Notes under the pieces: generated by a model
The model's input: the letters and a program-made list of their open reading frames with translations, nothing else
Told to the model about the DNA's origin: nothing
Database searches by the model: none
Made by a program: the position numbers and the translations under genes
Source of the DNA: an uncultured delta proteobacterium
GTDB lineage: Bacteria > Desulfobacterota > Binatia > Binatales > Binataceae
Direction: 5' to 3'
Assembly: GCA_963811865.1 (NCBI GenBank)
Contig: CAWESZ010000003.1
Location: forward strand, 359,779 to 423,778
Length of the DNA stretch: 64,000 nucleotides
Part shown: positions 1,966-47,757 of the stretch, piece after piece
Numbering within the stretch: the stretch's first letter is position 1
Layout of the letters: every line of letters begins with the position of its first letter

Positions 1966-3216
1966 ATGGCGTCGTCAGCAGGAGCGCTTCTCAAGCCGGA
2001 ATCGGCCGACAACAGCGAGATGCAGGCCGGCGGCGTCGCGAGAGCTGGACACAATGTCGCGCTCGGATATCTGCGCGGCTTCCTGGTCGTGCTGGTGCTG
2101 GCGCATCATTCGGTGCTGGCCTACATAGACTTGCCGCAGCCCCTTGCCAGTTCGCTACTGGCCCAGCCTCAATTGTGGCGCGCCTTCCCGGTGCTCGATC
2201 ATGTGCACTCGACGGGATTCGGTCTGTTCACCGGCTTCAACGACGACTTCTTTATGTCGTTGATGTTTTTCGTCTCCGGGCTGTTCGTATGGTCCAGTCT
2301 TCGACGCAAAGGCAACGCCGGTTTCATCCGCGATCGCCTGCGCCGGCTTGGCATTCCGTTTCTGTTCGCGGCTGCGATCATCGCTCCCGTCGCGTACTAT
2401 CCCGCGTATCTGATGACCGGCGCGCACGACTTGACCGGCTACCTTCACGACTGGCTCGCGTTTGGCGACTGGCCGACCGGACCTGCCTGGTTCATCTGGC
2501 TGCTGCTGGCGTTCGATCTCGCCGCCGCGGCGCTGTTCGCGTTGAGGCCGAATTTCGGCGCCGCAATTGGCCGTCTGGTATCGAACGCGCACCGACATCC
2601 GGTGCGATTCTATCTGCTGCTCGTCGCCGCTTCCGCGGCCGTCTATATTCCGATGTTTCGCATCTTCGGCCCGATGGACTGGACCAGCATCGGACCGTTC
2701 CAGTTCCAGACTGCACGGGTCTTTCATTACGCGGTCTACTTTCTCGCGGGAATCGGCGTCGGCGCCTACGGAATCGAGCGCGGCCTGCTGGCGCCGCACG
2801 GGACGCTCGCGCAGCATTGGGCGCGATGGACCATCTGGATGGTCGTCGCGTTCGGGTTGAGCGTGGTGTTCTTCCTGATCGTGATCTCAAAAGGTGGCGC
2901 GATGTCACCGGTCGTCTTGAGCGTCACCGGCGGCACGGTGTTCGCAGCGACTTGCGGCGCGATCTCGCTCGCCTTCATGGCGCTGTTCGTGCGATTCGCC
3001 ACGCGCCGTTTCTGGATCTTCGACAGCCTCAGCGAGAACGAATACGGGATGTATCTGATCCATTACATGTTCGTGTCCTGGCTGCAGCTCGCGATTCTGA
3101 GCGCGCCGCTTTCAGCCTTCGAAAAGGGCGTACTGGTCTTCGCGGGCACGCTGCTGCTGAGCTGGGGCGCCAGCGCGGCCGTCCGCAGCATCCCCGGCGT
3201 GTCGCGGATCGTTTAG
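1966..3216 (+). CDS. acyltransferase family 3 (OafA/OatA-like) integral membrane O-acyltransferase
   Basis: 416-aa multi-TM ORF. Motif GYLRGFLVVLVLAHHSVLAY matches the acyltransferase-3 N-terminal R..G....V...HH block. Confidence 0.6.
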   Translation: MASSAGALLKPESADNSEMQAGGVARAGHNVALGYLRGFLVVLVLAHHSVLAYIDLPQPLASSLLAQPQLWRAFPVLDHVHSTGFGLFTGFNDDFFMSLMFFVSGLFVWSSLRRKGNAGFIRDRLRRLGIPFLFAAAIIAPVAYYPAYLMTGAHDLTGYLHDWLAFGDWPTGPAWFIWLLLAFDLAAAALFALRPNFGAAIGRLVSNAHRHPVRFYLLLVAASAAVYIPMFRIFGPMDWTSIGPFQFQTARVFHYAVYFLAGIGVGAYGIERGLLAPHGTLAQHWARWTIWMVVAFGLSVVFFLIVISKGGAMSPVVLSVTGGTVFAATCGAISLAFMALFVRFATRRFWIFDSLSENEYGMYLIHYMFVSWLQLAILSAPLSAFEKGVLVFAGTLLLSWGASAAVRSIPGVSRIV

Positions 3217-3285
3217 TCCGCCGCACGATTCCGAAGCTTCCCGCGCAACCCGGCGCCCCGATCGGGCGTCGCCGCGCCAACTATC

Positions 3286-4833
3286 TTGGCGACCACCCGC
3301 GCGGGGGACCGGCAAAGCGTGACGCCAGCGGGTAGAATGGCGGAGATGGTCCGACCGGGTCCGCTCTCCCGCGTCACCGGGACGCAACGCGTTGCCGCAC
3401 CACGACGGTTGCGCGTCGACGCGTACATCGTGGCAGCGCTGGCGCTCGCTGCCGCGGCGACCCGCTTCATCGGCCTGGGTCATCCGGCGACGCTGGTCTA
3501 TGACGAGAAGTTCACCGTCGACTCCGCGCGACTCTACCTGCAGCATCTGCCGGATCGCGAGACTCATCCGCCGCTCGCCGCGGAACTGATCGCGATCTGC
3601 ATCCGGGCCTTCGGTGACCGGGCCGTGAGTTGGCGCCTGGCCGGCGCCAGCCTCGGCAGCGCTCTGGTCTGCGTCACCTACCTGCTGGGACATCGGATGT
3701 TCAAGTCTCGCGTCGCGGCCGCGCTGGCGGCGCTCTTCGTGCTTTGCGACGGCCAGTTCCTGGTCGATTCGCGGCTCGCGCACTGGGAAATTTTCTACCT
3801 GACCTTCGCCGCGTGCGCCTACCTGACGTTGTTCCGATTCGCCCAGAGCCGCGATCCGTTCGCGCGGCGCCGGACGCTGGTCTGGATGGGAATTGCGCTT
3901 GGCCTGTGCCTGGCCTCCAAACTCGGGATCCCGCTGGTGACCTTCGCGCTGGTGATGGGGGCGGTGGCATTCGTGATGGTGCGGGCGGTCGCCGCCGCGG
4001 ACCCGCGCCCGCGCGTCTGGAGCTTCGCCGCAATCCGGCCGCTCGCCGGCGCTTTCGCGCTGGTCGGCGGTTTGGCCGCGCTCGTCTACATCCTGCTTTT
4101 TCTGCCGACCTACTATTTCGGATGGTGGCATGGCGTCAGCGATCAGATCTCCTACTTTCGCGAGACCTTGCGCGGCCAGATCCATGTCCCCGCTACCCAT
4201 TCCTATAGCTCGCCGTGGTGGAGCTGGCCGCTGTTGCTCCGACCACTGCTCTACTGGAACGAGGAGAATCTGCTCATTCTGCCGGGGGCGAAGGTCGCTT
4301 CGATACTGGGAATCGACAATCCGGTGATTTGCTGGGCGTTGCTGGTGTCGATCCCGCTCGCGGCCGGAAGAGCGATCACGCGCTGTAACCTGGCGCAGGG
4401 ATTCGCCGTCCTCGGTTACGCGGTCTATCTTTTGATGTGGATCCCGGTCAGCCGCTATAAATTTCTCTATTACTACATGCCTGCGCTGTATCTCGGGTTT
4501 CTGAGTCTTGCCGGGACGCTCGGCGAATGCTGGGATGGCGAGGCCGGAAGCTGGGAGCATGCGGCCCTGCTCATTGCTCTGACTCCTTCGATGATGGTCG
4601 GGCTGGGGATCGGTCCGGGGTTGGCCGTGGCCGCGGCGACCGCGGCGAGTTACGTCCTGCTGCTGCGCTCGCGCTCGCAATACGGCGGGCGTTTCGTATG
4701 TGCGGCGTACGCCGGGGCTACCGCGATCGCATTTTTCTATTTTCTGCCAATCTGGACCGGCACACCGATTACCGCGGCGCAGCTTGACGCCCGGCTGTGG
4801 TTGAAGGGCTCCGGGCTGGCGAGCTGGCGCTGA
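3286..4833 (+). CDS. GT-C glycosyltransferase, family 39 / PMT-like (polyprenol-phosphate-mannose dependent protein mannosyltransferase-like)
   Basis: 515-aa polytopic membrane ORF. First-loop DE motif (LVYDEKFTVDSARLYL) and overall hydropathy resemble PMT/GT39 proteins. Confidence 0.55.
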   Translation: MATTRAGDRQSVTPAGRMAEMVRPGPLSRVTGTQRVAAPRRLRVDAYIVAALALAAAATRFIGLGHPATLVYDEKFTVDSARLYLQHLPDRETHPPLAAELIAICIRAFGDRAVSWRLAGASLGSALVCVTYLLGHRMFKSRVAAALAALFVLCDGQFLVDSRLAHWEIFYLTFAACAYLTLFRFAQSRDPFARRRTLVWMGIALGLCLASKLGIPLVTFALVMGAVAFVMVRAVAAADPRPRVWSFAAIRPLAGAFALVGGLAALVYILLFLPTYYFGWWHGVSDQISYFRETLRGQIHVPATHSYSSPWWSWPLLLRPLLYWNEENLLILPGAKVASILGIDNPVICWALLVSIPLAAGRAITRCNLAQGFAVLGYAVYLLMWIPVSRYKFLYYYMPALYLGFLSLAGTLGECWDGEAGSWEHAALLIALTPSMMVGLGIGPGLAVAAATAASYVLLLRSRSQYGGRFVCAAYAGATAIAFFYFLPIWTGTPITAAQLDARLWLKGSGLASWR

Positions 4834-4834
4834 G

Positions 4835-5602
4835 GTGCTCTCGTCGGTGCACCGGATCGTAAATCGAAGCGCGCTTGCCGCCGCCGTGCTGCTCATTGTT
4901 CTGGCGCTGTGCCCGGCAAGACCGGCTTCGAGCGACGAGAATCTCGTGCACAACGGTGATCTGATCGCGGGCAGCGGCGATTTACCTGACGATTGGCGCC
5001 CGACCAGCTTGAGGAAACGGAGCGTCAGCGTCTTCTCGTGGCAGCGTGCATCCGCCGATCCGGGGGAGTTGCGTCTGACCAGCAGCGAACCCAACGTGGC
5101 CGACTGGAGTCAGACCCTCGCCTTGTCTCCCGGATGGTATTACTTGTCCGGAGAAATGCGGATGCCGGGTATCGCCGCCTCATACAGCGGGGCGACGATC
5201 GGAATCCAGGTGAGTGCGCACGCATTTGGTGTGTCATGGCTCGGCGCAGGCACGGCCGCGGATTGGCGCAAGGGAGGCCTATACTTCAAGGTCGGCGGGT
5301 CCGGACGGAACGTGCAGGTGATCTGCCGCCTTGAGGGCACCGGCGCGGCGCTTTTCCGCCTCATCCGGCTTGCGCGGGTGCCCGATGCGCCGGCCAATGC
5401 CGCGCGCGTCGATCTCGATTCAGTTCAGGACCAGCCCGAGATCGTGAGTTCGAGCGTAAAGCCGAGACCGTTCGCGCCACCAAGGGGCCGCGGTTGGACG
5501 ATCGTCGCAACCATCTTGTTGCTGGCGGGAATTGCCATTTGGGGTTGGACCGTGCTGGGACCCGATCCGCACGAAGCTCACGGCAATGACCAAGGATCCT
5601 AA
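4835..5602 (+). CDS. membrane-anchored secreted protein with CBM4/9-like domain
   Basis: 255-aa ORF with GTG start overlapping the stop of the GT39 gene. N-terminal signal peptide. ENLVHNGDLIAGSGDLPDDW resembles the NLxxNGxFE..W start of CBM4/9/22 modules. C-terminal TM helix WTIVATILLLAGIAIWGWTVLG. Confidence 0.4.
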   Translation: MLSSVHRIVNRSALAAAVLLIVLALCPARPASSDENLVHNGDLIAGSGDLPDDWRPTSLRKRSVSVFSWQRASADPGELRLTSSEPNVADWSQTLALSPGWYYLSGEMRMPGIAASYSGATIGIQVSAHAFGVSWLGAGTAADWRKGGLYFKVGGSGRNVQVICRLEGTGAALFRLIRLARVPDAPANAARVDLDSVQDQPEIVSSSVKPRPFAPPRGRGWTIVATILLLAGIAIWGWTVLGPDPHEAHGNDQGS

Positions 5603-5864: not shown

Positions 5865-6851
5865 GTGAGTACCGCGGGTTTTGATTTTTACGGTGTGGGA
5901 CTCATTGTGAGCGGTTCGGCGTCGGCGGTGATCGCCGGCTTCGAGCGCGATTTCGCGTATTTTCTGGCCACGCCGTCGCGGTCAGCGATTGAGATCTCGG
6001 CTTACGACAGCGATCCGCCCTGGGACCGGATTCCCGATCGGATCGCCAGCATGGTGACCCCCAATGCGATCAGCTACGACCAGGGCCCGCTGCGTTACAA
6101 CGACTACCAGCGCGAGGCCCTGGCTATTTATGATTTCGCGGCCGAAAAGGGCGAGCTCTGGTCGCATGATCCCGACCTTCTGTACGAGCTTACCTATCTG
6201 ATGGCGCTCTCGCGGGTGGGCGAAATTCACGACCGTCGCGGCATCCACCGGGTGCACGCCCTAGGCGTTTCAGTGGACGGCCGCGGCGCGCTGGTGCTGC
6301 TCCCCGAAGGCGGCGGGAAGACCACCCTTGCACTCGAACTGCTGAAACGGCCCGGCGTAAAAGTCCTTTCCGACGATACGCCGCTGCTCGCCGGCGGCAG
6401 GCTGCGCGCGTTTCCCACCCGAATGGGAGTTCGCGGCGAAGTGAACGGAATCCCGCCCGAGTATCTACGCACTTTTCGACGCCGGAAACACGGCGCGAAA
6501 ACCCTCATCGACTTGAGCTACTTCCGCGACCGGGTGGCCGACGAAGCAGTTCCCGAAGCGGTAATCGTCGGAGTCCGAAGCAGCGGCGTCCCGTCCCGAA
6601 TTGAAGCGGTAAGCCGCACCGCAGTTTTTCCGGCCGTCGCGGCGAACCTGATCTTCGGGCTCGGGCTGCCGCAAGTCGTGGAATACTTTCTGCGCGGCGG
6701 CGTGAGAGACAAGCTTCAGAAAGCCGCAATCGCCAGCTCGCGCCTGACCAGCGCGGTACGCCTGCTCGCGCGCGCCAAATGCTATCGGCTGGTGTTGGGC
6801 CAGGACCTCGAGAGCGCCGGCACGGCGATCCTGTCGGTCCTTGCGCGATGA
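5865..6851 (+). CDS. HprK-related serine kinase (HPr kinase/phosphorylase C-terminal-like domain)
   Basis: 328 aa. VHALGVSVDGRGALVLLPEGGGKTTLALELLKRPGVKVLSDDTPLL is the HprK C-domain P-loop and following block. No N-terminal HprK domain, as in the HprK-related kinase A/B families. Confidence 0.55.
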   Translation: MSTAGFDFYGVGLIVSGSASAVIAGFERDFAYFLATPSRSAIEISAYDSDPPWDRIPDRIASMVTPNAISYDQGPLRYNDYQREALAIYDFAAEKGELWSHDPDLLYELTYLMALSRVGEIHDRRGIHRVHALGVSVDGRGALVLLPEGGGKTTLALELLKRPGVKVLSDDTPLLAGGRLRAFPTRMGVRGEVNGIPPEYLRTFRRRKHGAKTLIDLSYFRDRVADEAVPEAVIVGVRSSGVPSRIEAVSRTAVFPAVAANLIFGLGLPQVVEYFLRGGVRDKLQKAAIASSRLTSAVRLLARAKCYRLVLGQDLESAGTAILSVLAR

Positions 6852-8209: not shown

Positions 8210-9076
8210 TTACGCCGCGCCGGCTCGCGATTTGCGGCGTTGGTTGGCGCGATGAACCGGCTCGCCGTACCACGGTGTGTGCGCGGCCATGATCCGGGCC
8301 CGGTCCGCTTCCGTGACGTTGTGCTTGCGCAGAATTCTCTCCAGGCCCGCGATCGCATCCGCGGGATCCCGCAGCGTCAGCCGCTCGCCTTCATGGTCGC
8401 GATAGTTATACAGGCTCTGTTGCACGATGCCCACGCTCGCCCCGCGCTCGAGCAGGACCCAGACCATGTCGAAGTCATCGATGCCGGGGAAATCGCCCAG
8501 CGTTTCGTCGGCGCCGCCGATGGCCTTGAGCCGGTCTCGTCTGAACAGGAAGAAGTGGCTCAGATAACTCGCCCTTTGGTCCAGATGCTTGCGCCGTTCG
8601 AATCCGCGCAGATTCGGGATCGCGCTGACTTCGGGCAGCGACGTCACGCCGTCGCTCGCGTAGGAAGTCTGACCCGTGGACACAATGTCGTTTTCGTGTT
8701 TGACGCAGAGCGCGACTGCCTCTCGATCCAGCCAGTCGTCCGACATCAACAACCCGACCCGGTCGGCGCCGGCCAGATTGATGCCGAAGTTCAGCGCCGC
8801 GGCGAACCCCGGTATCGGCTGTCGTGCGGATCGCAGTAGACCGTCGAATTGATCGCGCAGCCGCGCGATCAGGTGGAGATTCGATTCGCGGGTCTTCGGC
8901 GCGTGCACGACGATGACCTCGCAAGGAACGGTCTGGGTCAGCGCCGACCGCAGGCTCTGCTCCAGCCAGTCATCGCGCTGATCCAGCAGCGGTACGATGA
9001 TGCTCGCGGCGAATCGCTTTGAGGACATGAGTAACTCAGGTTGATGGACGCCCGAGGCCGAATCCCGGGCTGACAA
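8210..9076 (-). CDS. glycosyltransferase family 2
   Basis: 288 aa. FAASIIVPLLDQRD..CEVIVVHA..SDDWLD are the GT2 N-terminal Rossmann and DXD blocks. Confidence 0.7.
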   Translation of the reverse strand: MSARDSASGVHQPELLMSSKRFAASIIVPLLDQRDDWLEQSLRSALTQTVPCEVIVVHAPKTRESNLHLIARLRDQFDGLLRSARQPIPGFAAALNFGINLAGADRVGLLMSDDWLDREAVALCVKHENDIVSTGQTSYASDGVTSLPEVSAIPNLRGFERRKHLDQRASYLSHFFLFRRDRLKAIGGADETLGDFPGIDDFDMVWVLLERGASVGIVQQSLYNYRDHEGERLTLRDPADAIAGLERILRKHNVTEADRARIMAAHTPWYGEPVHRANQRRKSRAGAA

Positions 9077-12701: not shown

Positions 12702-12992
12702 ATGGTCAAGGTTCCGAGGGTTCCCTGGGACCGCATGCGCAGCGGAGAAAGAAAGTTGTTTTTATCAAAACGAGTTTGGCTGGGGCTTTTTGGGCTCAGC
12801 ACCTGCGTAGTCTTGCTGCTGACGTGCTCGAATGCCGCTTTCGCGTGGTCGTGGTGGTGGTGGATCCCGCCGCAATCGACGCCGGCTCCGGTGCAGGCGC
12901 CTGAAATCGACCCGATGGCGGCGGTAAGCGGGTTGATGCTGTGCGCGGGCAGCGCGCTGATCTTGCTCGAGCGCTATCGCAAGCGAAAATGA
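12702..12992 (+). CDS. VPEID-CTERM sorting-signal mini-protein, cognate cargo of exosortase E
   Basis: 96 aa (or 85 aa from ATG 12735). Signal peptide RVWLGLFGLSTCVVLLLTCSNAAFA. Mature segment WSWWWWIPPQSTPAPVQ. C-terminal APEIDPMAAVSGLMLCAGSALILLERYRKRK = PEID motif + TM helix + basic tail, as in the VPEID-CTERM variant of PEP-CTERM. Confidence 0.6.
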   Translation: MVKVPRVPWDRMRSGERKLFLSKRVWLGLFGLSTCVVLLLTCSNAAFAWSWWWWIPPQSTPAPVQAPEIDPMAAVSGLMLCAGSALILLERYRKRK

Positions 12993-13049: not shown

Positions 13050-14693
13050 TTGTCCGCTCCGGAACGCGCTCTCCTCGAAATCCCCTACTTCACGCGTTGG
13101 CTCGTCCGCTTCAGCGCTCTGCTGCTGTTGCTGGGCTTCGAGTTGGTCGCGCTCACGCTCCCGTTCGATACCCAGGCGATACCGGGTCGGACCAGCGCCT
13201 ACCTCGCGGCGTTGCTCGCCGTGATCGACGGGGCGCGACCGGTCTTCATCACCGCAATTGTGGCCGCGATCTTTCTCAGCCGGCCAGTGCTCCGCGACGA
13301 ACTGCGCCGCGTGCTGGAAGACCCGCAACAGAGCGGCGGAGCACGCGCCCTGGTCTGGTTCGGAGCTCATCTGGCGCCGCTCACGGTGATGGCTTTGGCC
13401 ACGGTGCACAGAGGGAGCACCCGGATTCCATCGGCCTCCGGCGCCGAGGGCTACACGCTGTTTTACCTCCTCATACTGGCGCCGGCGGCACTGGTCACGT
13501 GGGCCCTGGCGGCGCTTCCGGGCCGATTCTGGATCCGCTGGATTCGCCGCAGCCGCGCGGCATTTCTGGCCGGCGCCGCCTTTGGCTGGGCGGCGTATCT
13601 GCTGGGTTCATACGTGCAGGGCCTGTGGCGGCCGGTGCAGCGCGGAACCTTCGCGATGGTCAGCCTGGTGTTGCGGATGCTCGGCGCGCCCGTGATCGTC
13701 CATCCGGATCAGTTCATTATCGGCACCCCGACATTCCTGGCGCGAATCGGCCCGGACTGTTCGGGCTTGGAGGGAATTGCGCTGATCGGAGCTTTTCTTG
13801 CGCTCTATCTATGGTTCTACCGGCGCGAGCTGCGGTTTCCGCAGGCCCTGCTCCTGATCCCGGCCGGCGCCGCGGCAATGTGGCTTCTGAACGTGGTCCG
13901 GATCGCGGCCCTGATTCTGATCGGAACATGGGACGCCGGCGCAGCCATGCGGGGTTTTCATTCGGTCGCGGGATGGCTGTTCTTCAATCTGGTTGCTTGC
14001 GGTCTGATTTGGGCAAGCCGGCGCCTGGGCCTGTTCGCGGCCATGCCGCATAGCGCGCCGCGCCCGGCTCCGGCGGCCGCGTACCTGGCGCCGATGCTCG
14101 CGATTATCGCCACCTCGATGTTCACGGTGGCGTTCTCGAACGGTTTCGAGCTGTTCTATGGGCTGCGGGTGATAGTCGCGGCCGCCGCGCTGTGGCTCTA
14201 TCGCGCGGAACTCCGCGCGATATGTTCGAAGCCTTCGTGGTTTGCGCTTTTGCCGGGCGTCCTGGTCTTTGCTCTGTGGATCGCCTTGACGCCGGACAGC
14301 GCCGCGGCCGATGCCGGCTTCGACCGGGCCTTGCGCGGTCTGCCCGCCCTCGGAGCGGCGCTCTGGCTGCTCCTGCGGGTGGCCGGCGCCGTGGCGACGG
14401 TCCCGATCGCGGAGGAACTCGTCTTTCGCGGCTACGCGACCCGCAAGCTGATCGCTTCCGAGTTCGAGACGGTGCCGCTGGGCCGCTTCACCTGGCTCTC
14501 GTTTCTGGGCTCGTCGATCCTGTTCGGCGCAATGAATCGCCAATGGGTGGCGGGCACCGCGGCGGGCATGATCTTCGCGATCGTCCTCTATCGCCGCGGC
14601 GCGCTTTCCGACGCGGTGCTGGCCCACGCCACCAGCAACGGCCTGCTCTCCGCATACGTGCTCTCGCTCCACAAGTGGTCGCTGTGGGGCTGA
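13050..14693 (+). CDS. xrtE: exosortase E / CPBP-family intramembrane protease fusion (XrtE)
   Basis: 547-aa polytopic ORF. Exosortase active-site block RIGPDCSGLEGIALIGAF in the N-terminal part. C-terminal CPBP motifs EELVFRG and LAHATSNGL. The fusion architecture defines exosortase E. Confidence 0.75.
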   Translation: MSAPERALLEIPYFTRWLVRFSALLLLLGFELVALTLPFDTQAIPGRTSAYLAALLAVIDGARPVFITAIVAAIFLSRPVLRDELRRVLEDPQQSGGARALVWFGAHLAPLTVMALATVHRGSTRIPSASGAEGYTLFYLLILAPAALVTWALAALPGRFWIRWIRRSRAAFLAGAAFGWAAYLLGSYVQGLWRPVQRGTFAMVSLVLRMLGAPVIVHPDQFIIGTPTFLARIGPDCSGLEGIALIGAFLALYLWFYRRELRFPQALLLIPAGAAAMWLLNVVRIAALILIGTWDAGAAMRGFHSVAGWLFFNLVACGLIWASRRLGLFAAMPHSAPRPAPAAAYLAPMLAIIATSMFTVAFSNGFELFYGLRVIVAAAALWLYRAELRAICSKPSWFALLPGVLVFALWIALTPDSAAADAGFDRALRGLPALGAALWLLLRVAGAVATVPIAEELVFRGYATRKLIASEFETVPLGRFTWLSFLGSSILFGAMNRQWVAGTAAGMIFAIVLYRRGALSDAVLAHATSNGLLSAYVLSLHKWSLWG

Positions 14694-14727: not shown

Positions 14728-15678
14728 TCAGCGCTTGTCGGCCAGCCGTTTGAAGGGCTTGCGCAGCAGTATTGCGCCGCGGATCGCGTTGGCCTTGATC
14801 TGATCGCGGATCGCCGAACGGCCCGGCGGCGCGGGACTCATCCCCAGCTTGCGCAGATAATAGTTGGCCTTATATTTATTCGCCGCCAGCATGTCGTCGA
14901 ATTGAAAATTGACGCTCAACGTGATCGACGGGCCATCGCCGTTGCGCACCCAGTGCGGCGCGTTGACCGGAACGTGAACCCCGTCACCCGGCTCCAGCTC
15001 AAAGACCCGCGCGCGATCCTGATAGTGCGCCTTGTATTTCGCGGCGTTGTTATCGACCGCCCAGAATCTCTCCAGTTCCTGTTCGGGCAGCACCTCGCGA
15101 TCGTTTTGATCGAAGATATAGACGGTTTTCCGTCCCTGAATCTGGAGGATAAAATTGCACTCCCGATCGATGTGATAAGTCGTGACGCGCTGCGGCGAAG
15201 TGATAAACACAATCGCATTGCGAACCCGGACCCGATCCCGATACGGCCCGAACCCGAGTTCACTCAGCTCGCTCATGCAGGCGTCGAGCAGCACGCGGTA
15301 GTCGGGATCGAGTTCCGCGCGCCGCAATATAATCCAGGCTCTGGCCGCTGAGATGTCGGCGATTATCTGATCGACGGTCTGGGCCGGGCGCGGCGTCTCG
15401 TCCCAGCGCTGGTCGACCCGGTTCACGCCGACGTCGTAGTAAACCTCACCCGGGAGTTGCGCCAGGCTGCGCGCCAGCTCGATCAGCCGCCGCATCCGCA
15501 TCAGCGGGTTTTCGACCAGACTGTGATGCAGTCGGAACGGGCGCTGATTGAAGTCGCGGTGGAAGACTTCGGGATCGGCCTCGATCAGTCTGCGGGATGA
15601 AGGGCCGTGATTACCGGCCGCGGCTGGTGCTGCTTTCGAGATCGCCATACCTGACCCGCGATAGTCATTTCGGCACAT
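14728..15678 (-). CDS. JmjC/cupin-8 family 2-oxoglutarate/Fe(II)-dependent oxygenase-like protein
   Basis: 316 aa (alternative start ATG 15648). HIDRECNFILQIQGRKTVYIF ... GDGVHVPVNAPHWV gives the HxD...H facial triad spacing on a double-stranded beta-helix, as in JmjC/cupin hydroxylases. Confidence 0.5.
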   Translation of the reverse strand: MCRNDYRGSGMAISKAAPAAAGNHGPSSRRLIEADPEVFHRDFNQRPFRLHHSLVENPLMRMRRLIELARSLAQLPGEVYYDVGVNRVDQRWDETPRPAQTVDQIIADISAARAWIILRRAELDPDYRVLLDACMSELSELGFGPYRDRVRVRNAIVFITSPQRVTTYHIDRECNFILQIQGRKTVYIFDQNDREVLPEQELERFWAVDNNAAKYKAHYQDRARVFELEPGDGVHVPVNAPHWVRNGDGPSITLSVNFQFDDMLAANKYKANYYLRKLGMSPAPPGRSAIRDQIKANAIRGAILLRKPFKRLADKR

Positions 15679-15746: not shown

Positions 15747-18525
15747 CTACTGCGGAAAGGCGATCAGCGTGACGCTGCCGGTGGCGTTGCCGGCCTGGGT
15801 AGCGACGATCGGGCATACCTGACCCGAGACCAGCGTTCCAGCCGCCACGGTACTCGACGCCGTCCACGCGAAGTACTCAATTGAATTAACCGGCACGCTG
15901 ACGCCCGCGATGCTCAGGTTGGCCGGCCCTACGGTCGCGGTGGTCCTGCCCAGGTTCTGGAACTGGGCCGTGCAGTGGTAGACCAGCGCCCAGTTTTGCG
16001 CGCAACTCGAGGTTGTGAACTGGAACGGCGCGATCGGAACGATATTGGTCGTGGCTTGAGCGCTGACTGGAGCTAAGCCCTTCAAGACGTTGGTCAGAAC
16101 CGTCACCGAGCAATCGGGAGTTGCGACGGGGACAGGAGTTGCAGTCGCGGTCGCAGTCGGCTTCGGCGTCGGGCTGGGCGTTGGTGACGGGGTACGAGTC
16201 GGAGTTGCCGTCGCGGGCGCGGTTGGAGTTGGTGTCGCCGCTGGCGAGGGCGTCGGCGTGGGTGACGGAGTATGAGTTGGCGTTGGCGTCGCTGCGGGTG
16301 AAGGGGTCGGCGTAGGACTAGGCGATGGGCTGGCAGTCGGCGAGGACGTCGGTGAGGGAGTATGCGTTGGGGTTGGCGTCGCTGCCGGTGACGGAGTCGG
16401 CGTAGGACTCGGCGATGGGCTGGCAGTCGGCGAAGGCGTCGGCGTTGGTGACGGTGACGGAGTTTGAGTCGGGGTTGGCGTCGCTGCGGGTGAAGGGGTC
16501 GGCGTAGGACTCGGCGATGGACTGGTAGTCGGCGAGGGCGTCGGTGACGGAGTATGCGTTGGCGTTGGCGTCGCTGCGGCTGAAGGGGTCGGCGAAGGGG
16601 TCGGGGTTGGTGACGGAGTATGCGTCGGGGTCGGCGTGCTGGTCGGCGTCGGCGAGGGCGTTCGAGTCGGCGTGGGTGAAGGCGTCGGTGTTGGAGTCGG
16701 CGACGCCAGCCCTGCCTCGACGAACGCCGGGACGAAGTTCGCGATATCGACCGTGCCCCATCCGGTGGTCTGGTCGTAGCCAACTCCGGCCGTGTAACCC
16801 GGCACACCGTTGAAGGTGTTGCTGCCGGTGGTTACGTCGCGGAATCCCCCCGCCACAGGATTTCGAATTCGCCAGGCTGTAGAGCCTCGGGTCGAGATTG
16901 CCGACCCGTCCCAGGTTCTGCTGCTCCAGCAGTTTTGCGATCCCCGTCCAGATTGGCGCGCCCAGGCTGGTGCCGCCCCAACAGCAATCGATGACCGCGG
17001 TGCCGCCCGAATCATTGCCGAGGAAGACGCCGGGCAGGTCGGGGCTCGCAACCATTGCTACGTCCGGCACGTCGCGCTGGCCGTCGGCGGGAACGCCGGT
17101 GCCGGTTTGAAAGCTGGGCTTGGCGAAGACCTGGCTAACTCCACCGCCGCCGGCGAAGCTCGCTTCGCCCCAAGCACTTTCCGCTACGCTACCGGAATCG
17201 CTCCCGCCGGAATTGTAGATCGGACTGAATTCCGTTCCGCCCACGCCGGTGACATTCGGACTGGCGGCCAATTCGCTGACGTTGCGGCTGGTTCCGGACA
17301 CGCATTCGGTGCCCGCCGAGTTGAGCACGATGCCCGCGGCGCCCTGGTCACCCGAAGAGATGAAAACTGATTGTCCCTGGGCCGCGGCCTGCGCGAACAT
17401 CGAGTCCATCGATTGGTAGAAGGCGCTGCCACCGCCGCAGAAGCCGAAACTGATGTTGATGGCGCTGCACGCGTTGTCGCTGATCGCGCCGGCGATAGCG
17501 TCAGTTACTCCGGCCGAAATGTAGTAACGCTGGGCGGCGGACGGAGCGACGGCATGCGACCACTCGAGATCGAGCAGGGCTTCGGTCTCGTCGCCGTTGA
17601 TTCCGGGGTTCGAGCCGTCAGACAGGACCCGCGTGATATTCGAGGCCGGCAGACCGAACTGGGTGTCGAAGTCAGTAACCGCGGCGGTGAGGAAATCCGA
17701 CGCGCCGACAATCGCGATACAATCGCTGGTCCCGGTAATACCGTTGGTGAGCAGCGGATTCTCGTCGTAGAACGTGCGCAGATCGCTCGGCCCGAACGCG
17801 CGCGCGTTAGCGACGATCGTCTCCGGCACCGGGATCGCGCCGGGCAGCGACGGACTGTCCTGCGCTTGCGCCTGATCGAACGACTCGGCCAGCACCATCG
17901 CGGGCAACTCCGGAGCGCCAGTTGGCGCTGCCGGCAGCGGGTCGTGCCGATGCAGCAGCGGCATCGAATGTTGCAGGTTGTCGAGACCCTGAATCGAATC
18001 GATCAAGCCGGCGAATTCGGACGGAATCAGCGGATCGGTCAGGTTGGCGTAGGCGTGGCCGTCAGCGAAGGTAGCGATGCTGGTATGCAACTCCCGCTCG
18101 ACCATCCATTCCGGGCCGCTGAACTCCGCGTAGCGCCCTGCCTGGTTGGTCGACAGAATCTGGAAGCCTTTGAGCTTGAGCCATTCGGACACCACGTTGA
18201 TGTCCGAGGGGCGGGGGCCGAAACGATCCGCGAACTCGCCGGCCTGCAGCCAATGGTGGTAGTTCGGCGACTTGGGATCCTGCTGCTCCGCGAGCAATTT
18301 CTCGAGCGCTTGGCGGTTGCGCGTCGCGAACCGGATTCGCATCACGAGCGTCTGATCGGGATCGGCCCATCCCACCGGTCGCCACTTCTCGACCTCCGCG
18401 GGATGGTTACCTGCCAGCGGAACGGTCTGGGCGATCGCCGGGCCGGCGGCGATCAAGACTACCACCGCCGCCAGGAGGCGGATTCGTCCGAGCGCCCTCG
18501 GCCTCGCTTGCGGTGAGTTCTTCAC
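15747..18525 (-). pseudogene. secreted S53 (sedolisin/kumamolisin-type) peptidase with Pro/Thr linker and novel C-terminal domain; one frameshift in this assembly
   Basis: Joins ORF-track 16318..18786 (start trimmed to GTG 18525 giving signal peptide KNSPQARPRALGRIRLLAAVVVLIAAGPAIAQ) with 15747..17051. Pro-kumamolisin-type N-terminal region. Catalytic block [18 protein letters not shown]-terminal S53 block [35 protein letters not shown] is in the other frame. The frames meet at a C6/G6 homopolymer at 16846-16851. Confidence 0.7.
16150..16690 (-). repeat. tandem low-complexity repeats encoding the Pro/Thr/Ser linker (TPTPSPTPT...) of the S53 peptidase
   Basis: Near-perfect 6-9 nt periodic CC(G/T)AC(A/T) repeats. 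They generate spurious long ORFs in the other frames and strand (16090..16275, 16103..16807, 16121..16315). Confidence 0.7.
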
Positions 18526-18539
18526 ACTGAAGCCTCGGA

Positions 18540-19013
18540 CTATTGAGGCAACTCGATGAGCGTCACACTGCCGGTGGCGGTGCCGCTCTCGGTCGAACTG
18601 ATCGGGCAGAACGAACCGCTCACCTGCGACCCGGCTTGCGCGGAAACGGAATAGGTCCAGGTTATGTACTGACTTGAGCTGGCGGGCACGTTGACGCCTC
18701 TGATGTTCACAGAGGACGGCGTCACCGTCGCCGCCACGGTCGTGCCGTTGGTGAACTGCACCGTACAGTAGGCGACCAACACCCAATTCTGCGCGCAGGT
18801 CGGAGTCGTGAACTGACTTGGTACCAGCGGTACGAAGCTTTTCGAGGCGTTGGCGCTGACATTAACGCTGCCGCTGGTGTTTCCGACCGCGATGTGGGCC
18901 GGGCAACTCTGCGCGCAGGCCGTGCCAGGCCCTAACAGCGCCAACGTCAGCAGCAACGCCGCAATTTTCAGAGTGATATCAAGGGAGTCGCGCCGCGCGC
19001 TCATTGCTCGCAT
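18540..19013 (-). CDS. small secreted protein paralogous to the C-terminal domain of the adjacent S53 peptidase
   Basis: ORF-track 18540..19124 trimmed to MRAMSARRDSLDITLKIAALLLTLALLGPGTACAQ (signal peptide). About 55% identity over ~110 aa to the peptidase C-terminus. Shared blocks FTT..CAQNW.LV.YCT.QF.N, GV.VP..S..Y..WT, VSG..CPI and a terminal GSVTLI..PQ. Confidence 0.55.
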   Translation of the reverse strand: MRAMSARRDSLDITLKIAALLLTLALLGPGTACAQSCPAHIAVGNTSGSVNVSANASKSFVPLVPSQFTTPTCAQNWVLVAYCTVQFTNGTTVAATVTPSSVNIRGVNVPASSSQYITWTYSVSAQAGSQVSGSFCPISSTESGTATGSVTLIELPQ

Positions 19014-25211: not shown

Positions 25212-26502
25212 ATGATCGTGAAGCGTAATTCCGCCGCGCTGTTCGCGCGCGCGCAAAAGAAAATTCCCGGCGCAGTGAATTCTCCGGTCCGCGCGTGGAC
25301 CGCGGTCGGCCGCGAACCGCTGTTTATCGATCGCGCCGCAGGTGCGTTGGTCTATGACGCCGACGGCAATCGTTTCATCGACTACGTTGGCTCCTACGGA
25401 CCAGCGATCGTCGGTCACGCCGATCCGCGCGTCATCGCGGCGCTGGCCGATCAGGCGGCGAAAGGACTCAGCTACGGAGCCCCCACGCGAGCTCGAAGTC
25501 GAATTGGCGGAACGGATCAGCGCCGCCATTCCGGTCGCCGAGAAAGTGCGGCTCGTCAGTTCGGGCACCGAGGCCGGGCTGACCGTACTCCGGCTGGCCC
25601 GAGCCATCACGAAGCGTCCAAAGATAATCAAGTTCGACGGATGCTATCATGGCCACAGCGACGCGCTCTTGGTGCGAGCCGGCTCAGGCGCGATGACGCT
25701 GGGCGTGCCGGACAGCGCCGGAGTGCCGGCCGACTTGGCCAAGCTTACGCTAGTCGTGCCGTACAACTCGTTAGAGGCCGTCGAGCGCCAGTTCGCGATC
25801 GCGCCGGCCGAGATTGCTGCGGTGATCGTCGAGCCGGTCGCGGCGAATATGGGCGTGGTGCCTCCCGCGCGGGATTTTCTCAAGGATCTCGGTGCGCTCG
25901 CGCATCGCCACGGTGCGCTGCTGATCTGCGACGAAGTTATCACCGGGTTTCGCCTTCGCTTCGGCGCCGCCTATCCGATCTTCGACGCCGAGCCCGACCT
26001 GCTTATGCTCGGCAAGGTGATCGGTGGCGGGATGCCGATCGGAGCGGTCGCGGGCCGCGCCGACCTGATGGATCAGCTCGCGCCGGTCGGGCCCGTCTAC
26101 CAGGCTGGCACGCTCTCGGGAAATCCGCTGTCGGTGCGCGCCGGGTTGAAGACGCTGGAGATTCTCGAACAACCGGGAACCTACGAGCAGCTCGAGGCCG
26201 CCGGCGCAAAGCTGGAGGCCGGCTTCGTCGCGGCCTTGAAAGACGCAGGTGAGATGGGATGCGTCAGCCGCGCCGGCTCGCTCCTCACCCTGTTCCTCGG
26301 CGTCGAGCGGGTCGAGAATGCCGAGGATGCGCGCCGCTCGGATACCAGGAAGTTCGCGCGCTTTTTCCAGGCGATGCTCGATCGCGGCATCTACTTGCCG
26401 CCTTCGCAGTTCGAGGCGCTGTTCGTCTCGCTTGCGCATAGCGAGGCCGATCTGGAGCAGACTATCGTCGCGGCCCGCGAATCCATGCGGAGTCTGGGCT
26501 GA
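25212..26502 (+). pseudogene. hemL: glutamate-1-semialdehyde 2,1-aminomutase; single frameshift at C5 run ~25490-25494
   Basis: Frame 1 (25212-) reads ...[77 protein letters not shown]. Frame 2 continues [29 protein letters not shown]... to the PLP-lysine region and a C-terminus at 26502. One extra C in GCCCCCACGCGAG reconciles them. Confidence 0.85.
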
Positions 26503-37079: not shown

Positions 37080-38255
37080 GTGAGCGCCCTCGAAGCATTC
37101 TCGGAGGCGGAGTTGCGGCCCGCCGCCCCTTCGACATTCACCGAGAAGACCTTCTATCTCGAGGAATTCTACGGCAAGAGCCTGCTGTTCGCGCTGATTC
37201 CACCGAGTGCCGAGCGGATGAGCGATCTCGATTCGCTGGTCCGCGCGCTGCGCGAGCTGCGGCGCAACCAGACGCGATGCATCGTGATCGTCTCGATGAG
37301 TGCGCTGCCGCGCCTGATGCGCCGGATGGGCCGGCTCGCGCCGCAGGGACCGCCCCCGATGATCGAACCCGGTGCGCGGGATGCGCTCGCGGCCGTATCC
37401 GCCGGACTCGGCGGTCGCGCGGATCTGGCGGGGGTTGCGCACCGGATCGATCATCGTCGCCGCGACCGAAACCGACGACGCCGCCGACCTCACGATCTTC
37501 GCACAGGAACTCGCGAGCCGCCTGATGGTTTTCAAGCTGGTTCTGCTCGACCGTCAAGGCGGGCTGACCGCCCGCAACGGCGACCGCCTGTCGTTTGTCG
37601 AAGGCCGGCGCATCAACCGCGCGCTGCGTCAGACGCGCGCGAAGCTCCGCCGCACGATTCTGCGCGCCACCGGCCGCGCGCTCAAGGACGGCGTCGGATC
37701 GGTCAATCTCGCCGCGCCGCGAGACGTGTACGAGGAGCTGTTCAGCTACATCGGCACTGGCACGCTCTTCACGGCGCAGCAGTACGGCCAGGTCGGGCCG
37801 ATCGCGATCGACGACTTCGGCGAGGTCGAGGCGCTGATCATGCGCGCCCAGAGCGAGGGTTTTCTGCTCCCGCGCACCGGCGAGGCGAATCGCGGAAATT
37901 TTGCCGTCGTGCTTCGGGTATCGGATCGGGGACGAGCATCTGGCGGGGATCTGCTCACTGTTGACCGAGCCCTACCACCGCGAACGGGCGGGCGAAATCA
38001 CCGCGCTGTACACGCTCACGCGCTTCCAGGGCGAAGGTGTTGCGGCTGAACTCGTGCAGGCAAGTGATGACCGAGGCGCTCGCCCGCCGCTTGCGCTACG
38101 TCTTCGCCTGCACTAGCGCGGAACGCGCGGCGCGCTTCTTCACGCGGCTGGGGTTTCGCCGGGTGACGGCCAGCGAGGTGGCCGGGTCGAAGTGGCGCGA
38201 CTACGATCGGGCGCGGATCGCGCGGCTCGCGATCTTCCGCGCCGACCTCGACTGA
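37080..38255 (+). pseudogene. amino-acid N-acetyltransferase (ArgA-like: amino-acid-kinase-fold domain + GNAT); at least three frameshifts
   Basis: Fragments FYLEEFYGKSLLFALIP.. / ..GSIIVAATETDDAADLTIFAQELASRLMVFKLVLLDRQGGL..FTAQQYGQVGPIAIDDFGEVEALIMRAQSEGFLLPRTGE.. / ..YRIGDEHLAGICSLLTEPYHRERAGEITALYTLTRFQGEGVAAELV / ..FACTSAERAARFFTRLGFRRVTASEVAGSKWRDYDRARIARLAIFRADLD*. Confidence 0.5.
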
Positions 38256-38299: not shown

Positions 38300-39772
38300 G
38301 CGATGGCGGCGAATCGCTGAGTCGCCTCGTCCGCTGTCCTCACGCTCCATCGGCTGGACGCCGCCGACGTTTGCGGCGATAACGAAGCGATCGAGGGCGT
38401 GTTCGTGCAGCAGATGGTCGAGCACGGCGCGCTACTTTTCCCGCTGCTCAACGGCCGCGACCCGATGTACAAGCCGCCGCTGTTCCATTGGACCGCGGTC
38501 GCGCTCGACCATGCGCTCGGGATTCGCAAGGTCACCGCGTTCAATCTGCGCCTGCCGGCGGCGCTCTACGCGACCGCCGGGGTCATCCTCACGATGGCCT
38601 TCGCTCTGAGCGTGCTTGGCCCGGCCGGCTCGATCATGTCCGGGCTGATCCTGTGCGGATCGTATCAGTACGTGAGCCAGGGCCGAATCGGCCGGGTCGA
38701 CATGACGCTCGCCTTCTTCGAGACGCTGGCATTGTTCTCGTTTCTCCGCTGGTACTTGCCCGGCGGTCGCGCTCAAGCGAATCAACCGCAGCGCGAAGCT
38801 GGCGCGCGATCCGGCACACTCTACGTTTTCGCGCTCGCGCTCGGATTGGCGGTCCTTGCCAAGGGTCCGGTGGGTGCGATTCTGCCGCTCGCGTCGATCG
38901 GAGTGCTCCTGATCGTCGAACGCCGGCTCAACGAAGTCCGGAAGCTGCTCCATCCCGGCCCGATGATTGTTGCGCTGGCGGTCGGTTCGAGCTGGTATCT
39001 GGCCTGCCTCTACGGGCGCCGTTACGGCTTTTTGCATCGGCAGCTTGGCTCCGAGAACTTCGGGCGGTTTTTCGGCTCGCTCGGTGCGATGCCACCTTGG
39101 TACTACGTCGGGCCGATCCTGCTCAATTCCGCCCCGCTCAGCCTGATGGTCCCGATCGCGGTGGCTGCGGCTATTGGGTTCCCCCTTCCCGTCTTTAGGG
39201 AAGGGGGTCAGGGGGTTAGGTCGCGGAGTGCCGTCCGTTTGCTCGCGATTTTCTGGGTCGTCAGCGTGGCGTTCTTCTCGATCGCGGCCTACAAGCGCCG
39301 CGCCTATCTGCTGCCGCTGTGGCCGGCATCCGCCGTGATGCTCGCGTGGGGAATCGAGACGTTGCGGGCGCATCGGATCGGCAGGCTCGCGCGTCCTGTG
39401 GTCGGGGCGATCTGCGCCGGCCTGATCGTCTTCAACTTTGCCTACCTGCCACACCGGGAGATCGCGAATTGCGGCGACGACTCATTTCGCGACGCGGCGA
39501 CTCAGATCACCCGGGTCGTCGGTCCCGATGAACCGCTGTTCCTCTACGGGATCGAAGGTGACGCGGCGCCGCTGCTGTTTTATCTCGATCGTGACGCGAC
39601 GCCGCTGTCCGGCAAGCTCGGCGACGCGCCCCCCGGCTACGTCATCTTACCCGCCGCGGTCTGGAGGGCGCATCGGCTCGAAGCGCTGGAGCTCGAGCCG
39701 GTGCTGACCATCCGCTCGGGCGCCCATCCGCTCGTCCTGCTGCGACGGGGCAAGGTGTACGTGGAACGATAG
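38300..39772 (+). pseudogene. GT-C glycosyltransferase of the ArnT/GT83-GT39 type; frameshift(s) in the N-terminal region
   Basis: 457-aa ORF 38399..39772 begins inside the conserved first periplasmic loop (..MVEHGALLFPLLNGRDPMYKPPLFHW). The preceding ..LHRLDAADVCGDNEAIEGVF (D-E motif region) is in another frame. True start uncertain. Confidence 0.5.
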
Positions 39773-45993: not shown

Positions 45994-47549
45994 TCAGCGC
46001 GCAGCCGTCACGCGCTTGATCCGAAACAGGTCAAAATAGTTGGAGCCGGTTGCCGGGTAACGCTTGACGAATTCGAGACACTCGACCGGCCGCGGATCAT
46101 CCAGGTTGCGCTCTTCGCGCCGCGACATCATCAGGTAGGCTGCATCTGGCTGACCAGCCAGCCATCGGCAGAGATTCCCGGGGCGAAGCGTCGGCAGATC
46201 GATCGGTCTCGCTCCGGCGTAATACGCGGTCTGGCCCTGCGACGAAACCACTGCGAGATCGCCTTGGGCCAACGTGCGGATGTCGGCGCCGGCCAGCTTG
46301 AACGCGCGCTGATCGTAGCCGATCGGCCAGAGCGTTCGCGGCAGCATCGTGAGCGCGACGACGATCGCAAACTTGGTTGAGGCCCGATTCCCGCCCACGA
46401 TCGGGAGCGGTCCAATCCATTCGGACCCGCGCTCGAATCCAATCATGATCCAGCCGAACGTGTACACGATGACATGCTCGATCAGCCGCGGGCCAGTGAC
46501 CAGGAGCACGAAACTGGTGAGATAGAAGCCCGCGATCAGCAGAAGCAGGCTTTCTTTCCACGAATCGAGGATTTTCGGCCCCGGAGGGCGAGCCCGAGCG
46601 CCAGCAGCAACGTCAGGAGGGGGCCCAGCGCTTCCGCCAGATAGTAGAAGGAAAAGACCAGATCGTGCGCAACCTTGAGGAAATAGGCCTGCGGATCAGT
46701 CGCCAGAGCCCCGAGCAGGGAGACGGTGCCGGCCTGTCTCAACGCCTGCCAGGGAGCCTTGTTGGAGGCGGTCTCCATCACGCTCATGGCAACGCTGTTG
46801 TTGAACTCGCGACTGACCGTCCAGCGCCCGGTCGCACGGTGAAGGTAAAGTAGATACGGCGAGGCGACGGTCAGGAAGGTAGCTGCCAGCAGCGCCGCCC
46901 ATGCAAGGCCCTGTGTGATGCGCCATCGCCGCCAGACCCACGCCCCGGCGATCACAAACCCGCCGCCGACCGCAAGGAAGCCGAACCCTTCAGCGCGATA
47001 GAGATAGGCAAGGCCGCCGACCACTCCCGCCGCCGCCACCATCGCGAGACTTTCGCGCTCGATTGCGGAGATCAGCAGGCAAAGCGCCGCCACCATCAGG
47101 CATACATAGCCCGCCTCCGTCCTCACCGACGACGAATATTCGGCCATCAAGGGATGGATAACCGTGATGGCAGCCGCACCGAGCGCGTATGATCGGACCT
47201 GAAGGACTTGCCGGATCAGCAGATAGACCAGCGGTATCGTGATGGTTCCGAAGAACGTCGAGAGCAGGTCACCGCTTAACTCCCAATTGGGGACGAGCGG
47301 ATGGACCAGCGCCATCAGCCACGGATACAGCGGGGAGAAGATCGACCCGAGGGCTCCCGTCCGATCTCCGGCGGCGAAATCCCGCGCCATCCGAACATAC
47401 TCGGGACCGTCGGCGGAGATACAGTAGCTGGCGAAAACGAGGTAGAGGCGGATCGCCAGCCCGATCGCGGTCAGGGCCATCACGGCTGGTCCGTCGGCTA
47501 AATTGCGCAACGCCCTTGCTACGGTCCGGTCCATGTGGTTCGATTGCAT
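45994..47549 (-). pseudogene. GT-C (PMT_2/ArnT-like, GT39-type) membrane glycosyltransferase with C-terminal soluble domain; one frameshift near 46540
   Basis: ORFs 46536..47636 (polytopic, ..[19 protein letters not shown]..) and 45994..46509 join at GGGGCCGAAAATCC (LALRGPKILDSWKESLLLLIAGFYLTSFVLLVTGP...). Start guessed at an internal ATG. Confidence 0.45.
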
Positions 47550-47596
47550 GTTCGGCCCAGCCGCGCAGGCAGTCAGACAAGCATTCGTTACGACCA

Positions 47597-47755: not shown

Positions 47756-47757
47756 AC

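Follow-up and report, generated by a model that had tools for sequence, protein, structure and literature searches.

A GT39-type glycosyltransferase gene and its carbohydrate-binding-module-like partner form a conserved pair and a candidate two-component glycosylation module in Binataceae

Two adjacent genes and their locus

We analysed a stretch of 64,000 nucleotides (hereafter the window) from contig CAWESZ010000003.1 of an uncultured member of the Binataceae, with a G+C content of ~63%. The closest relatives of its proteins are found in Candidatus Binatales and Binataceae metagenome-assembled genomes (MAGs), including P0003 (62% identical) and P0029 of Ca. Binatus soli (50%). Two adjacent genes are the subject of this work. 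The first (3337-4833) encodes a membrane glycosyltransferase of the GT-C type that is related to the protein mannosyltransferases (PMT, family GT39), and the second (4835-5602) encodes a membrane-anchored protein that resembles a carbohydrate-binding module (CBM). Together they are a conserved two-gene module. Taken by itself, the enzyme adds a member to a known family; what is new here is the near-universal CBM-like partner, the expansion of the pair into paralogues and the fusions that involve it. Coordinates are collected in Table 1.

The open reading frame (ORF) called mechanically at 3286-4833 (+) is a real gene. It opens at the TTG at 3286 and then has 515 aa. The probable start is the ATG at 3337, which gives 498 aa, the same length as the homologues; P0001, which is 99% identical, also has 498 aa. 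An antisense ORF of 660 aa at 3112-5094 was dismissed as arising from the high G+C content. The PMT gene and its partner gene are both intact, unlike the split genes of the window. At least five window genes are broken into two overlapping reading frames each, which points to indel errors in assembling the sequence or, with lower probability, to several pseudogenes. A scan of the sequence for promoters and terminators returned no promoter and terminator-like sites only at background level.

Table 1. Features of the gene pair and of other window genes discussed in the text (AF2, AlphaFold2; TM, transmembrane; PT, Pro/Thr)
Feature	Position	Strand	Basis or remark
GT39/PMT-type GT-C glycosyltransferase gene, 498 aa, MIR-less	3337..4833	+	Pfam, PDB profile, AF2 fold
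DE motif D56-E57, first periplasmic loop	3502..3507	+	aligned with DE of CtPmt4 and ScPmt1
E151, second acidic position of loop 2	3787..3789	+	equivalent to MtPMT D176 and ScPmt1 D189
Loop-4 motif HSYSSPWWSWPLLLRPLLYW	4198..4257	+	most conserved motif; aligns with HPYAS..WPFLLRG of fungal PMTs
R373-x2-F376 (RYKFLYYYMP), loop-5 phosphate and acceptor pocket motif	4453..4482	+	aligned with ScPmt1 R649-F652 (RQMF)
Cognate partner gene, 255 aa, type-I membrane protein	4835..5602	+	GTG start 1 nt after PMT stop
Predicted signal peptide of partner, core ALAAAVLLIVLAL then ARPASS	4835..4933	+	sequence; helix 2-21 in AF2 model
Predicted CBM-like periplasmic beta-sandwich (ENLVHNGDL ... PGWYY ... FR)	4937..5389	+	AF2 strands, Foldseek, conserved aromatics
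Juxtamembrane P-x-G-x-(P/G)-W-(T/S) and TM helix ending GW, short cytoplasmic tail	5477..5557	+	column conservation; helix 216-236 in model
VPEID-CTERM-type mini-cargo, 96 aa: AWSWWWWIPPQSTPAPVQAPEIDP, TM helix, RKRK	12702..12992	+	context only
Exosortase E/CAAX-protease fusion (VPEID-CTERM system)	13050-14693	+	TIGR04162, 215.6 bits against cut-off 150
S53 (pro-kumamolisin) peptidase, (T/S-P)n stretch of ~170 aa	frames 16318-18786 and 15747-17051	-	context only
Same S53 peptidase, whole extent	15747-18786	-	two overlapping frames
Split class-III aminotransferase	25212-26502	+	two overlapping frames
Split N-acetylglutamate-synthase-like gene	37080-38049	+	two overlapping frames
Split GT-C protein	45994-47636	-	two overlapping frames
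Second PT-linker protein	frames 52871-53917 and 51555-52952	-	split
Same PT-linker (surface) protein, whole extent	51555-53917	-	two overlapping frames

A divergent PMT-type enzyme

Sequence and modelled fold place the enzyme in the PMT/GT39 family, as a divergent bacterial representative. Its ORF aligned with the Pfam profile PMT (PF02366; 59.8 bits against a cut-off of 22.7, E 3.8e-16) over residues 52-276 of 515 and with PMT_4TMC, the C-terminal four-TM domain (PF16192; 58.5 bits against 32.4), a domain retrieved in almost all of 49 homologues. The PMT_2 model also scored above its curated cut-off (39.9 bits). When a profile built from 39 family members was compared with 177,635 PDB sequences (E<=10), fungal PMTs were the sole matches (Pmt1, 6.9e-30; CtPmt4, 1.2e-27; ScPmt4, 1.3e-22; Pmt2, 1.7e-16), and no ArnT, PglB/STT3, Emb/Aft or DPY19 was among them. 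The AF2 model of the enzyme (predicted local distance difference test, pLDDT, 82.7; predicted template-modelling score, pTM, 0.87) had its best fold matches in PMTs as well, with query-based template-modelling scores (TMq) of 0.66-0.71 for Pmt4 and Pmt1 (9i5k, E 7.8e-12, TMq 0.67; 6p25_A, TMq 0.71). Outside the PMTs, the scores fell to 0.52 for ArnT, ~0.43 for oligosaccharyltransferases and 0.40 for DPY19 (Foldseek E 0.05), and Emb and AftA were weak matches (E ~1e-3). Neither an NCBIfam ArnT profile nor a Pfam DPY19 profile matched the enzyme. The same holds for the MIR profile of Pfam, and the loop between helices 267-282 and 329-349 has only ~45 residues in the model.

The initial annotation, made from the DNA alone, had proposed a GT39-like enzyme with a DE motif in loop 1, and this is borne out by Pfam, by the PDB profile, by the fold and by the alignment of D56-E57. 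It had also named clustering with ArnT among the outcomes that would speak against its reading. For the gene at 3337-4833 such clustering was looked for and did not appear: an ArnT-like reading fails because profile and fold both favour PMTs.

Residue conservation was counted across 80 relatives of the enzyme. D56 and E57 are invariant (80/80 each) and are presumed to provide the catalytic base. In the model, they sit between TM1 (26-43) and the helix 57-68, directly ahead of the first loop helix. Conservation in the family peaks at the motif SPWWSWP in loop 4 (pattern S[PRN]WWSWP), with W297 present in 80/80 relatives. The segment that contains it, HSYSSPWWSWPLLLRPLLYW, corresponds to the aromatic-cradle and WW-like acceptor-groove segment of the actinobacterial enzyme MtPMT, in which loop 4 forms an aromatic cradle and a WW-like groove for a proline-rich peptide (PMC12331936). 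The loop-5 arginine R373 was found in 79 of the 80 relatives and an aromatic residue at position 376 (F/Y) in all of them. Mutagenesis of MtPMT showed D74, D176, R441 and Y444 to be essential (PMC12331936), and their counterparts here are D56, E151, R373 and F376. The second acidic position is Asp in 58 relatives, Glu in 16 and Asn in six; the window protein has Glu.

The partner protein

Behind its signal peptide, the partner is predicted to consist of a periplasmic beta-sandwich and a C-terminal TM helix. The homologues likewise have hydrophobic N-termini ahead of an NLLxNGDF motif, and this motif, several Trp residues, PGWYY and FFR are conserved among the partners. In the AF2 model the core of the beta-sandwich has a pLDDT of 77-88. 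Foldseek matched the model to CBM70 (4d0q, E 1.5e-7, target-based score TMt 0.65) and also to CBM61, CBM16, CBM4 and CBM22 (2xom, 2zew, 1gui). At the level of sequence, no Pfam or NCBIfam family was retrieved for the window partner, and 30 homologues gave stray weak matches only (DUF5013 in 3/30, at E 0.003).

Only the core motifs are better conserved than the residues on either side of the TM helix. Across 80 partners, conservation reached ~0.99 for the GW on the cytoplasmic side and 0.8-0.9 for the periplasmic P.G.PW. The C-terminal tails are basic, so the C-terminus is predicted to be cytoplasmic and the sandwich periplasmic, that is, on the same side of the membrane as the PMT active site. 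The anchored CBM-like neighbour, co-transcribed with the enzyme, that had been suggested for this position is supported by the beta-sandwich model, the TM helix and the 1-nt gap between the genes.

In about a dozen partner homologues, a spacer of 20-45 aa, rich in S/T/A/P, separates the beta-sandwich from the signal peptide; they include those of loci L048, L050, L055, L022, L030, L059, L051, L054 and L063; the window partner has no spacer. These spacers resemble the disordered Pro-rich O-mannosylation acceptor segments of mycobacterial mannoproteins (PMC12331936).

Pairing and co-duplication across Binataceae

Relatives were sought in one genome per GTDB species. In total, 393 stretches encode them, and pairing was counted in the best 79 loci, nearly all of which bear the label of a Binataceae, Binatia or 'delta proteobacterium' MAG. 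A partner homologue lies directly after the PMT gene and on the same strand in 75 of these 79 loci; one of the four partner-less loci is broken by a contig end. Counted by ORF across all loci, 83 out of 88 PMT ORFs have a downstream partner. In four independent homologue contexts, a downstream gene of ~230-255 aa without a Pfam family, 37-46% identical to the window ORF 4835-5602, is the only gene shared with the window. The distant outgroup PMT P0047 has no partner, and its next gene encodes an unrelated polytopic protein of 649 aa.

Genomes hold several paralogous pairs, for example at four loci in assembly CAWHNS and three in CAVVMA. Pairwise distances among PMTs and among their partners are strongly correlated (r=0.93, a value reached by 0/999 permutations in a Mantel test), and the pair has therefore duplicated and diverged as a unit.

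Fusions and long forms

An exhaustive profile search with the partner retrieved 1,281 relatives at E<=1e-3, and fusions were examined among the top 150. In ~27 of these, the partner module forms the N-terminus of a protein of ~460-1030 aa whose remainder is polytopic (~3-14 predicted TM helices). Six cluster representatives (P0139, P0162, P0174, P0179, P0196 and P0197) have the module fused to an ALG3/GT87-like GT-C domain, with E values from 1e-122 to 5e-33. In P0136 (730 aa; L087:6001-8193), the module is joined by a 20-residue cytoplasmic linker to a full PMT core (522 bits). The topology of P0136 is coherent, running from the periplasmic domain through the TM helix and the short cytoplasmic linker into TM1 of the PMT, and locus L087 has no separate partner gene. 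Its nearest relatives also have the partner ahead of the PMT, but as two genes. The ALG3/GT87-like fusions are spread over several clusters, unlike P0136, which is a singleton.

At least five further fusion groups carry unclassified polytopic domains, with weak NCBIfam matches to the LA_3751 putative glycosyltransferase and AZOBR_p60025 glycopolymer-formation families. Two other candidates for fusions were rejected: the L071 ORF 7451-9652 is a frameshift artefact in which the PMT C-terminus is out of frame, and the C-terminal extension of P0014 (615 aa) looks like out-of-frame sequence. The C-terminal polytopic part of P0095 proved unrelated to the PMT profile when the two were aligned with hhalign (probability 1.8%).

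Most relatives of the enzyme are long forms of ~970-1090 aa, in which an N-terminal ALG3/GT87-like domain precedes the GT39 core (L006:4945-7872 (-), L042:4435-7455, L023:1876-4932 and ~50 other loci), and behind each lies a partner gene of its own. The first 500 residues of the long forms matched the Pfam profiles ALG3 in 9/16 cases (best E 5e-7) and GT87 in 6/16 (best E 1e-8), both weakly; a PDB profile search with this N-terminal domain found no match. As the N-terminal halves match ALG3/GT87, the long forms are best read as double GT-C proteins. The window enzyme is a short form, and loci L001 and L006 hold adjacent short and long forms, each with its own partner. The ALG3 and GT87 families use polyprenol phosphate mannose or dolichol phosphate mannose as donors. 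Only the ALG3/GT87-like fusion hints, and indirectly, at mannose as the sugar and at elongation of the first residue.

The fusions also bear on the role of the partner, which might be a dedicated acceptor of the enzyme instead of a subunit. Glycosylation would then take place at the juxtamembrane P-x-G-x-P-W-(S/T) or in the S/T/A/P-rich spacers, and the product would be the glycoprotein itself, such as a surface lectin or an envelope protein. The strict 1:1 pairing and the co-duplication fit this idea, as do the conserved S/T that neighbours Pro where the chain enters the membrane, level with a GT-C active site, and the 20-45-aa spacers of the dozen or so partners, which mostly stand beside long-form enzymes. 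However, an S/T-rich spacer is missing from most partners, including that of the window, fusions of the module to polytopic proteins, GT-C enzymes among them, would be expected of a subunit and not of a substrate, and the motifs flanking the TM helix suggest intramembrane contact. We consider a dedicated acceptor unlikely, while noting that the two roles can coexist. The GT-C fusions, the conserved TM flanks and the co-duplication lead us to regard the partner as an associated accessory subunit and not primarily as an acceptor.

A proposed two-component glycosylation module

We propose that the two genes are an operon for a two-component periplasmic glycosylation module, composed of a GT39 enzyme and a lectin-like or substrate-recruiting partner, and we put the probability of this reading at roughly 55%. 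Like other GT-C enzymes, the enzyme would most likely take a hexose, which is probably mannose, from a polyprenyl-phosphate-sugar donor. Transfer would take place on the periplasmic side of the inner membrane, with Ser/Thr residues of exported proteins as the most probable acceptors. From the conservation around its TM helix, we infer that the partner docks on the enzyme through that helix. Once docked, it would serve as a lectin-like or substrate-recruiting subunit and might be the in-trans counterpart of the MIR domain that eukaryotic PMTs carry in cis. There are precedents for such a role: MIR, itself a CBM, binds O-mannosylated peptides and influences processivity (PMC7759382), and AftD has three CBMs that bind the glycan it takes as acceptor (bioRxiv 10.1101/2019.12.22.885152).

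Several observations weigh against this proposal. The enzyme scored only 65.1 bits, over residues 93-186, with the equivalog profile of actinobacterial Pmt (NF058602, cut-off 800). Its second acidic site is Glu, and the D176E substitution nearly inactivates MtPMT (PMC12331936). The model of the partner has moderate overall confidence only (pLDDT 66.6), and, as it has no sequence-level match to a CBM family, its sugar binding is putative. No polyprenol phosphate mannose synthase was found in the window, nor did regular-expression scans for the N-terminal motifs of DPM1/GtrB detect one in ~1 Mb of flanking sequence around the related loci. Finally, P0136 could owe its fusion to a lost stop codon or an indel artefact, since it is a singleton on a MAG contig, and the split genes of the window itself add to this concern.

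Some of the same observations would suit an enzyme of GT39 fold that decorates a glycan or glycolipid (an exopolysaccharide, lipopolysaccharide or another envelope polymer), with the partner holding the polymer in the manner of the CBMs in AftD and Emb. CBM-like partners are typical of GT-C enzymes with glycan acceptors, the second GT-C domain of the long forms is typical of glycan elongation, and both the Glu at the second acidic site and the divergence from characterised Pmt would be easier to accommodate. Polysaccharide genes also lie beside the pair: GT2, GT4 and sulfotransferase genes in the window, and GT2, GT4 and ABC-2 exporter genes in L006. Nevertheless, these genes are not conserved as neighbours, among PDB sequences the family profile detected neither ArnT nor Emb or Aft, and the best conserved parts of the enzyme are the PMT-specific C-terminal four-TM domain and the loop-4 aromatic motif that corresponds to the peptide groove of MtPMT. 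Moreover, as the eukaryotic MIR domain illustrates, protein O-mannosylation and a lectin domain can go together. A glycan acceptor thus seems improbable to us, and we return to a protein-directed module with an accessory subunit as the preferred reading.

A broader version of this proposal can be put forward only tentatively, as something we would sooner bet against than for. The Binataceae might possess an unrecognised periplasmic machinery for protein O-mannosylation made of modular GT-C enzymes, in which GT39 is often fused to an ALG3/GT87-like elongator and, for each enzyme, a dedicated lectin subunit anchored in the membrane replaces MIR in trans and sets acceptor choice or processivity. 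The paralogous pairs would then represent several specificities, possibly including PT linkers.

Neighbouring genes and candidate acceptors

The window contains dnaA, dnaN, parAB, rsmG, mnmG, mnmE and yidC, and on account of this gene set it represents the neighbourhood of the chromosomal replication origin. ORFs for rpmH (L34), an rnpA-like and a yidD-like protein at 47516-48431 (+) stand ahead of yidC (48444-50108).

Candidate acceptors had been pointed out in the initial annotation, namely an exosortase E mini-cargo, an S53 peptidase with a long PT linker and a second protein with a PT linker. All three are present, the latter two as split genes. The mini-cargo shows the cargo pattern of the VPEID-CTERM system (APEIDP, a TM helix and RKRK). 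It also carries an unusual AWSWWWW run that is followed by IPPQSTPAPVQAPEIDP. A JmjC/cupin protein is encoded directly downstream of exosortase E (14728-15678, -).

Bacterial PMT prefers Pro-rich S/T segments as acceptors (PMC12331936), and for this reason PT linkers are chemically plausible acceptors. One could therefore suppose that the enzyme is located here to O-mannosylate the neighbouring proteins with PT linkers or P/S/T-rich segments (the mini-cargo, the S53 peptidase and the 51555-53917 protein). In favour of this, the enzyme is PMT-type with the acceptor preference just mentioned, the window has two long PT linkers besides the mini-cargo, and S53 homologues occur ~0.3-2 kb from PMT pairs in L060 and L072. 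Conservation of the neighbourhood was assessed by searching for the window neighbours with tblastn in 80 other related loci (~1 Mb). Exosortase E, acyltransferase-3, GT2, GT4, sulfotransferase, TetR, AlkZ and orf6880 were each detected in 0/80 of these loci, the HprK-related gene in one, and S53 in two, without PT runs. An ORF with a PT run occurs in one of the loci. Because only the partner gene is conserved, the neighbourhood gives no support for nearby acceptors, and a conserved linkage between the enzyme and its candidate acceptors was rejected. The functional weight that had been placed on proximity is thus not upheld. The candidates also lie 7-47 kb away, with unrelated genes between them and the pair, including the housekeeping set of the oriC region. 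Since the substrates of a PMT need not be encoded by linked genes, proximity is weak evidence either way. Taken together, we judge it quite unlikely that the location of the enzyme reflects these acceptors.

A further suggestion, flagged as speculative from the outset, was a DPY19-like reaction in which one of the GT-C enzymes encoded in the window would C-mannosylate the mini-cargo at its W-S-W-W-W-W motif. The Trp-rich motif itself is all that speaks for it. DPY19 is a marginal fold match to the enzyme, far under PMT and ArnT, and no DPY19 Pfam match was found in any of the three GT-C proteins of the window. The suggestion is unsupported and we regard it as very improbable. Two further GT-C genes of ArnT/PMT type had been noted, and both exist; neither, however, is a PMT. 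The gene at 38399-39772 is ArnT-like (5ezm, E 3.6e-6), and the split gene at 45994-47636 matched the generic PMT_2 model only, its PDB matches being antibody chains at E >= 0.014.

Other neighbours are mentioned for completeness. A membrane acyltransferase of the Acyl_transf_3 family (OafA/MdoC-like; 1966-3216, +) is encoded 120 nt upstream of the PMT gene. Downstream of the pair, the product of 5865-6851 (+) is weakly similar to HprK-related kinase B (TIGR04355); a 64%-identical homologue in L006 (20595-21494, -) lies 9 kb from the pair, past a cluster of GT2, GT4 and ABC-2 polysaccharide-export genes. The GT2 gene at 8210-9076 was considered as a candidate Ppm1 and rejected, as its best matches were chondroitin synthase and GalT1 at E>0.04 and not DPMS or GtrB. 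The S53 (sedolisin-type) homologues at L060:27-1490 (+) and L072:4105-5705 (-) are 42-49% identical to that of the window and have no PT runs. Their position ~0.3-2 kb from tandem PMT-partner pairs may be a coincidence or a weak recurring association.

Significance

GT39 genes are annotated in >3,800 bacterial species, but studies of protein O-mannosylation have been confined essentially to Actinobacteria (PMC11727336). Our literature search found no paper that connects Binatia to O-mannosylation. If true, a module of an enzyme and a lectin-like subunit would bear on substrate selection and processivity in those bacterial PMTs that lack MIR, and would raise the question of whether the lectin function of MIR can be supplied in trans. 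It would also raise the question of whether the Binataceae, a widespread uncultured soil lineage, hold an expanded system of envelope glycosylation. As the module consists of two small genes, it is directly testable in existing pmt-null reporter systems of Corynebacterium and Mycobacterium.

Comparison with known systems

The actinobacterial Pmt enzymes (Rv1002c/MtPMT, Cg1014 and S. coelicolor Pmt; GT39) are similar to the window enzyme in their PMT and PMT_4TMC domains, their size of ~500 aa and the absence of MIR, and share with it the loop-1 DE, the loop-5 R-x2-aromatic motif and the P-W-W-x-W-P segment of loop 4. The window enzyme is nevertheless not their orthologue, as shown by its score with NF058602 (65 against 800 bits), and has Glu as its second acidic residue. 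The Binataceae family also differs in coming from Gram-negative, uncultured bacteria with several paralogues per genome and in having a CBM-like partner gene. We know of no such partner gene described for an actinobacterial Pmt.

The PMT/POMT enzymes of fungi and animals (ScPmt1-Pmt2, 6P25; Pmt4, 9E61 and 9I5K) include the best sequence and structure matches and have the same catalytic motifs. In both systems a carbohydrate-binding module, or a predicted one, stands beside the enzyme. In the eukaryotic enzymes this is the MIR beta-trefoil, which is present in cis in the TM7-TM8 loop, whereas in the window it would be a beta-sandwich of another fold, encoded by a gene of its own and anchored by its own TM helix. 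The donor would probably differ as well, being a bacterial polyprenol phosphate and not a dolichol phosphate derivative.

ArnT (GT83), the Ara4N transferase of lipid A, has the GT-C fold and the N-terminal region recognised by Pfam PMT/PMT_2, and is the second-best fold class (TMq 0.52). It was not, however, among the sequence matches of the family profile at E<=10, and the ArnT-like gene of the window is that at 38399-39772. To our knowledge, ArnT lacks the PMT_4TMC domain, which the window enzyme has.

The mycobacterial arabinosyltransferases AftD and EmbA/B/C are also GT-C membrane enzymes with periplasmic CBM-like modules of the beta-sandwich type, and theirs bind the acceptor (bioRxiv 10.1101/2019.12.22.885152). 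They differ from the module proposed here in belonging to other GT families, in carrying their CBMs in cis and in having arabinan as the acceptor.

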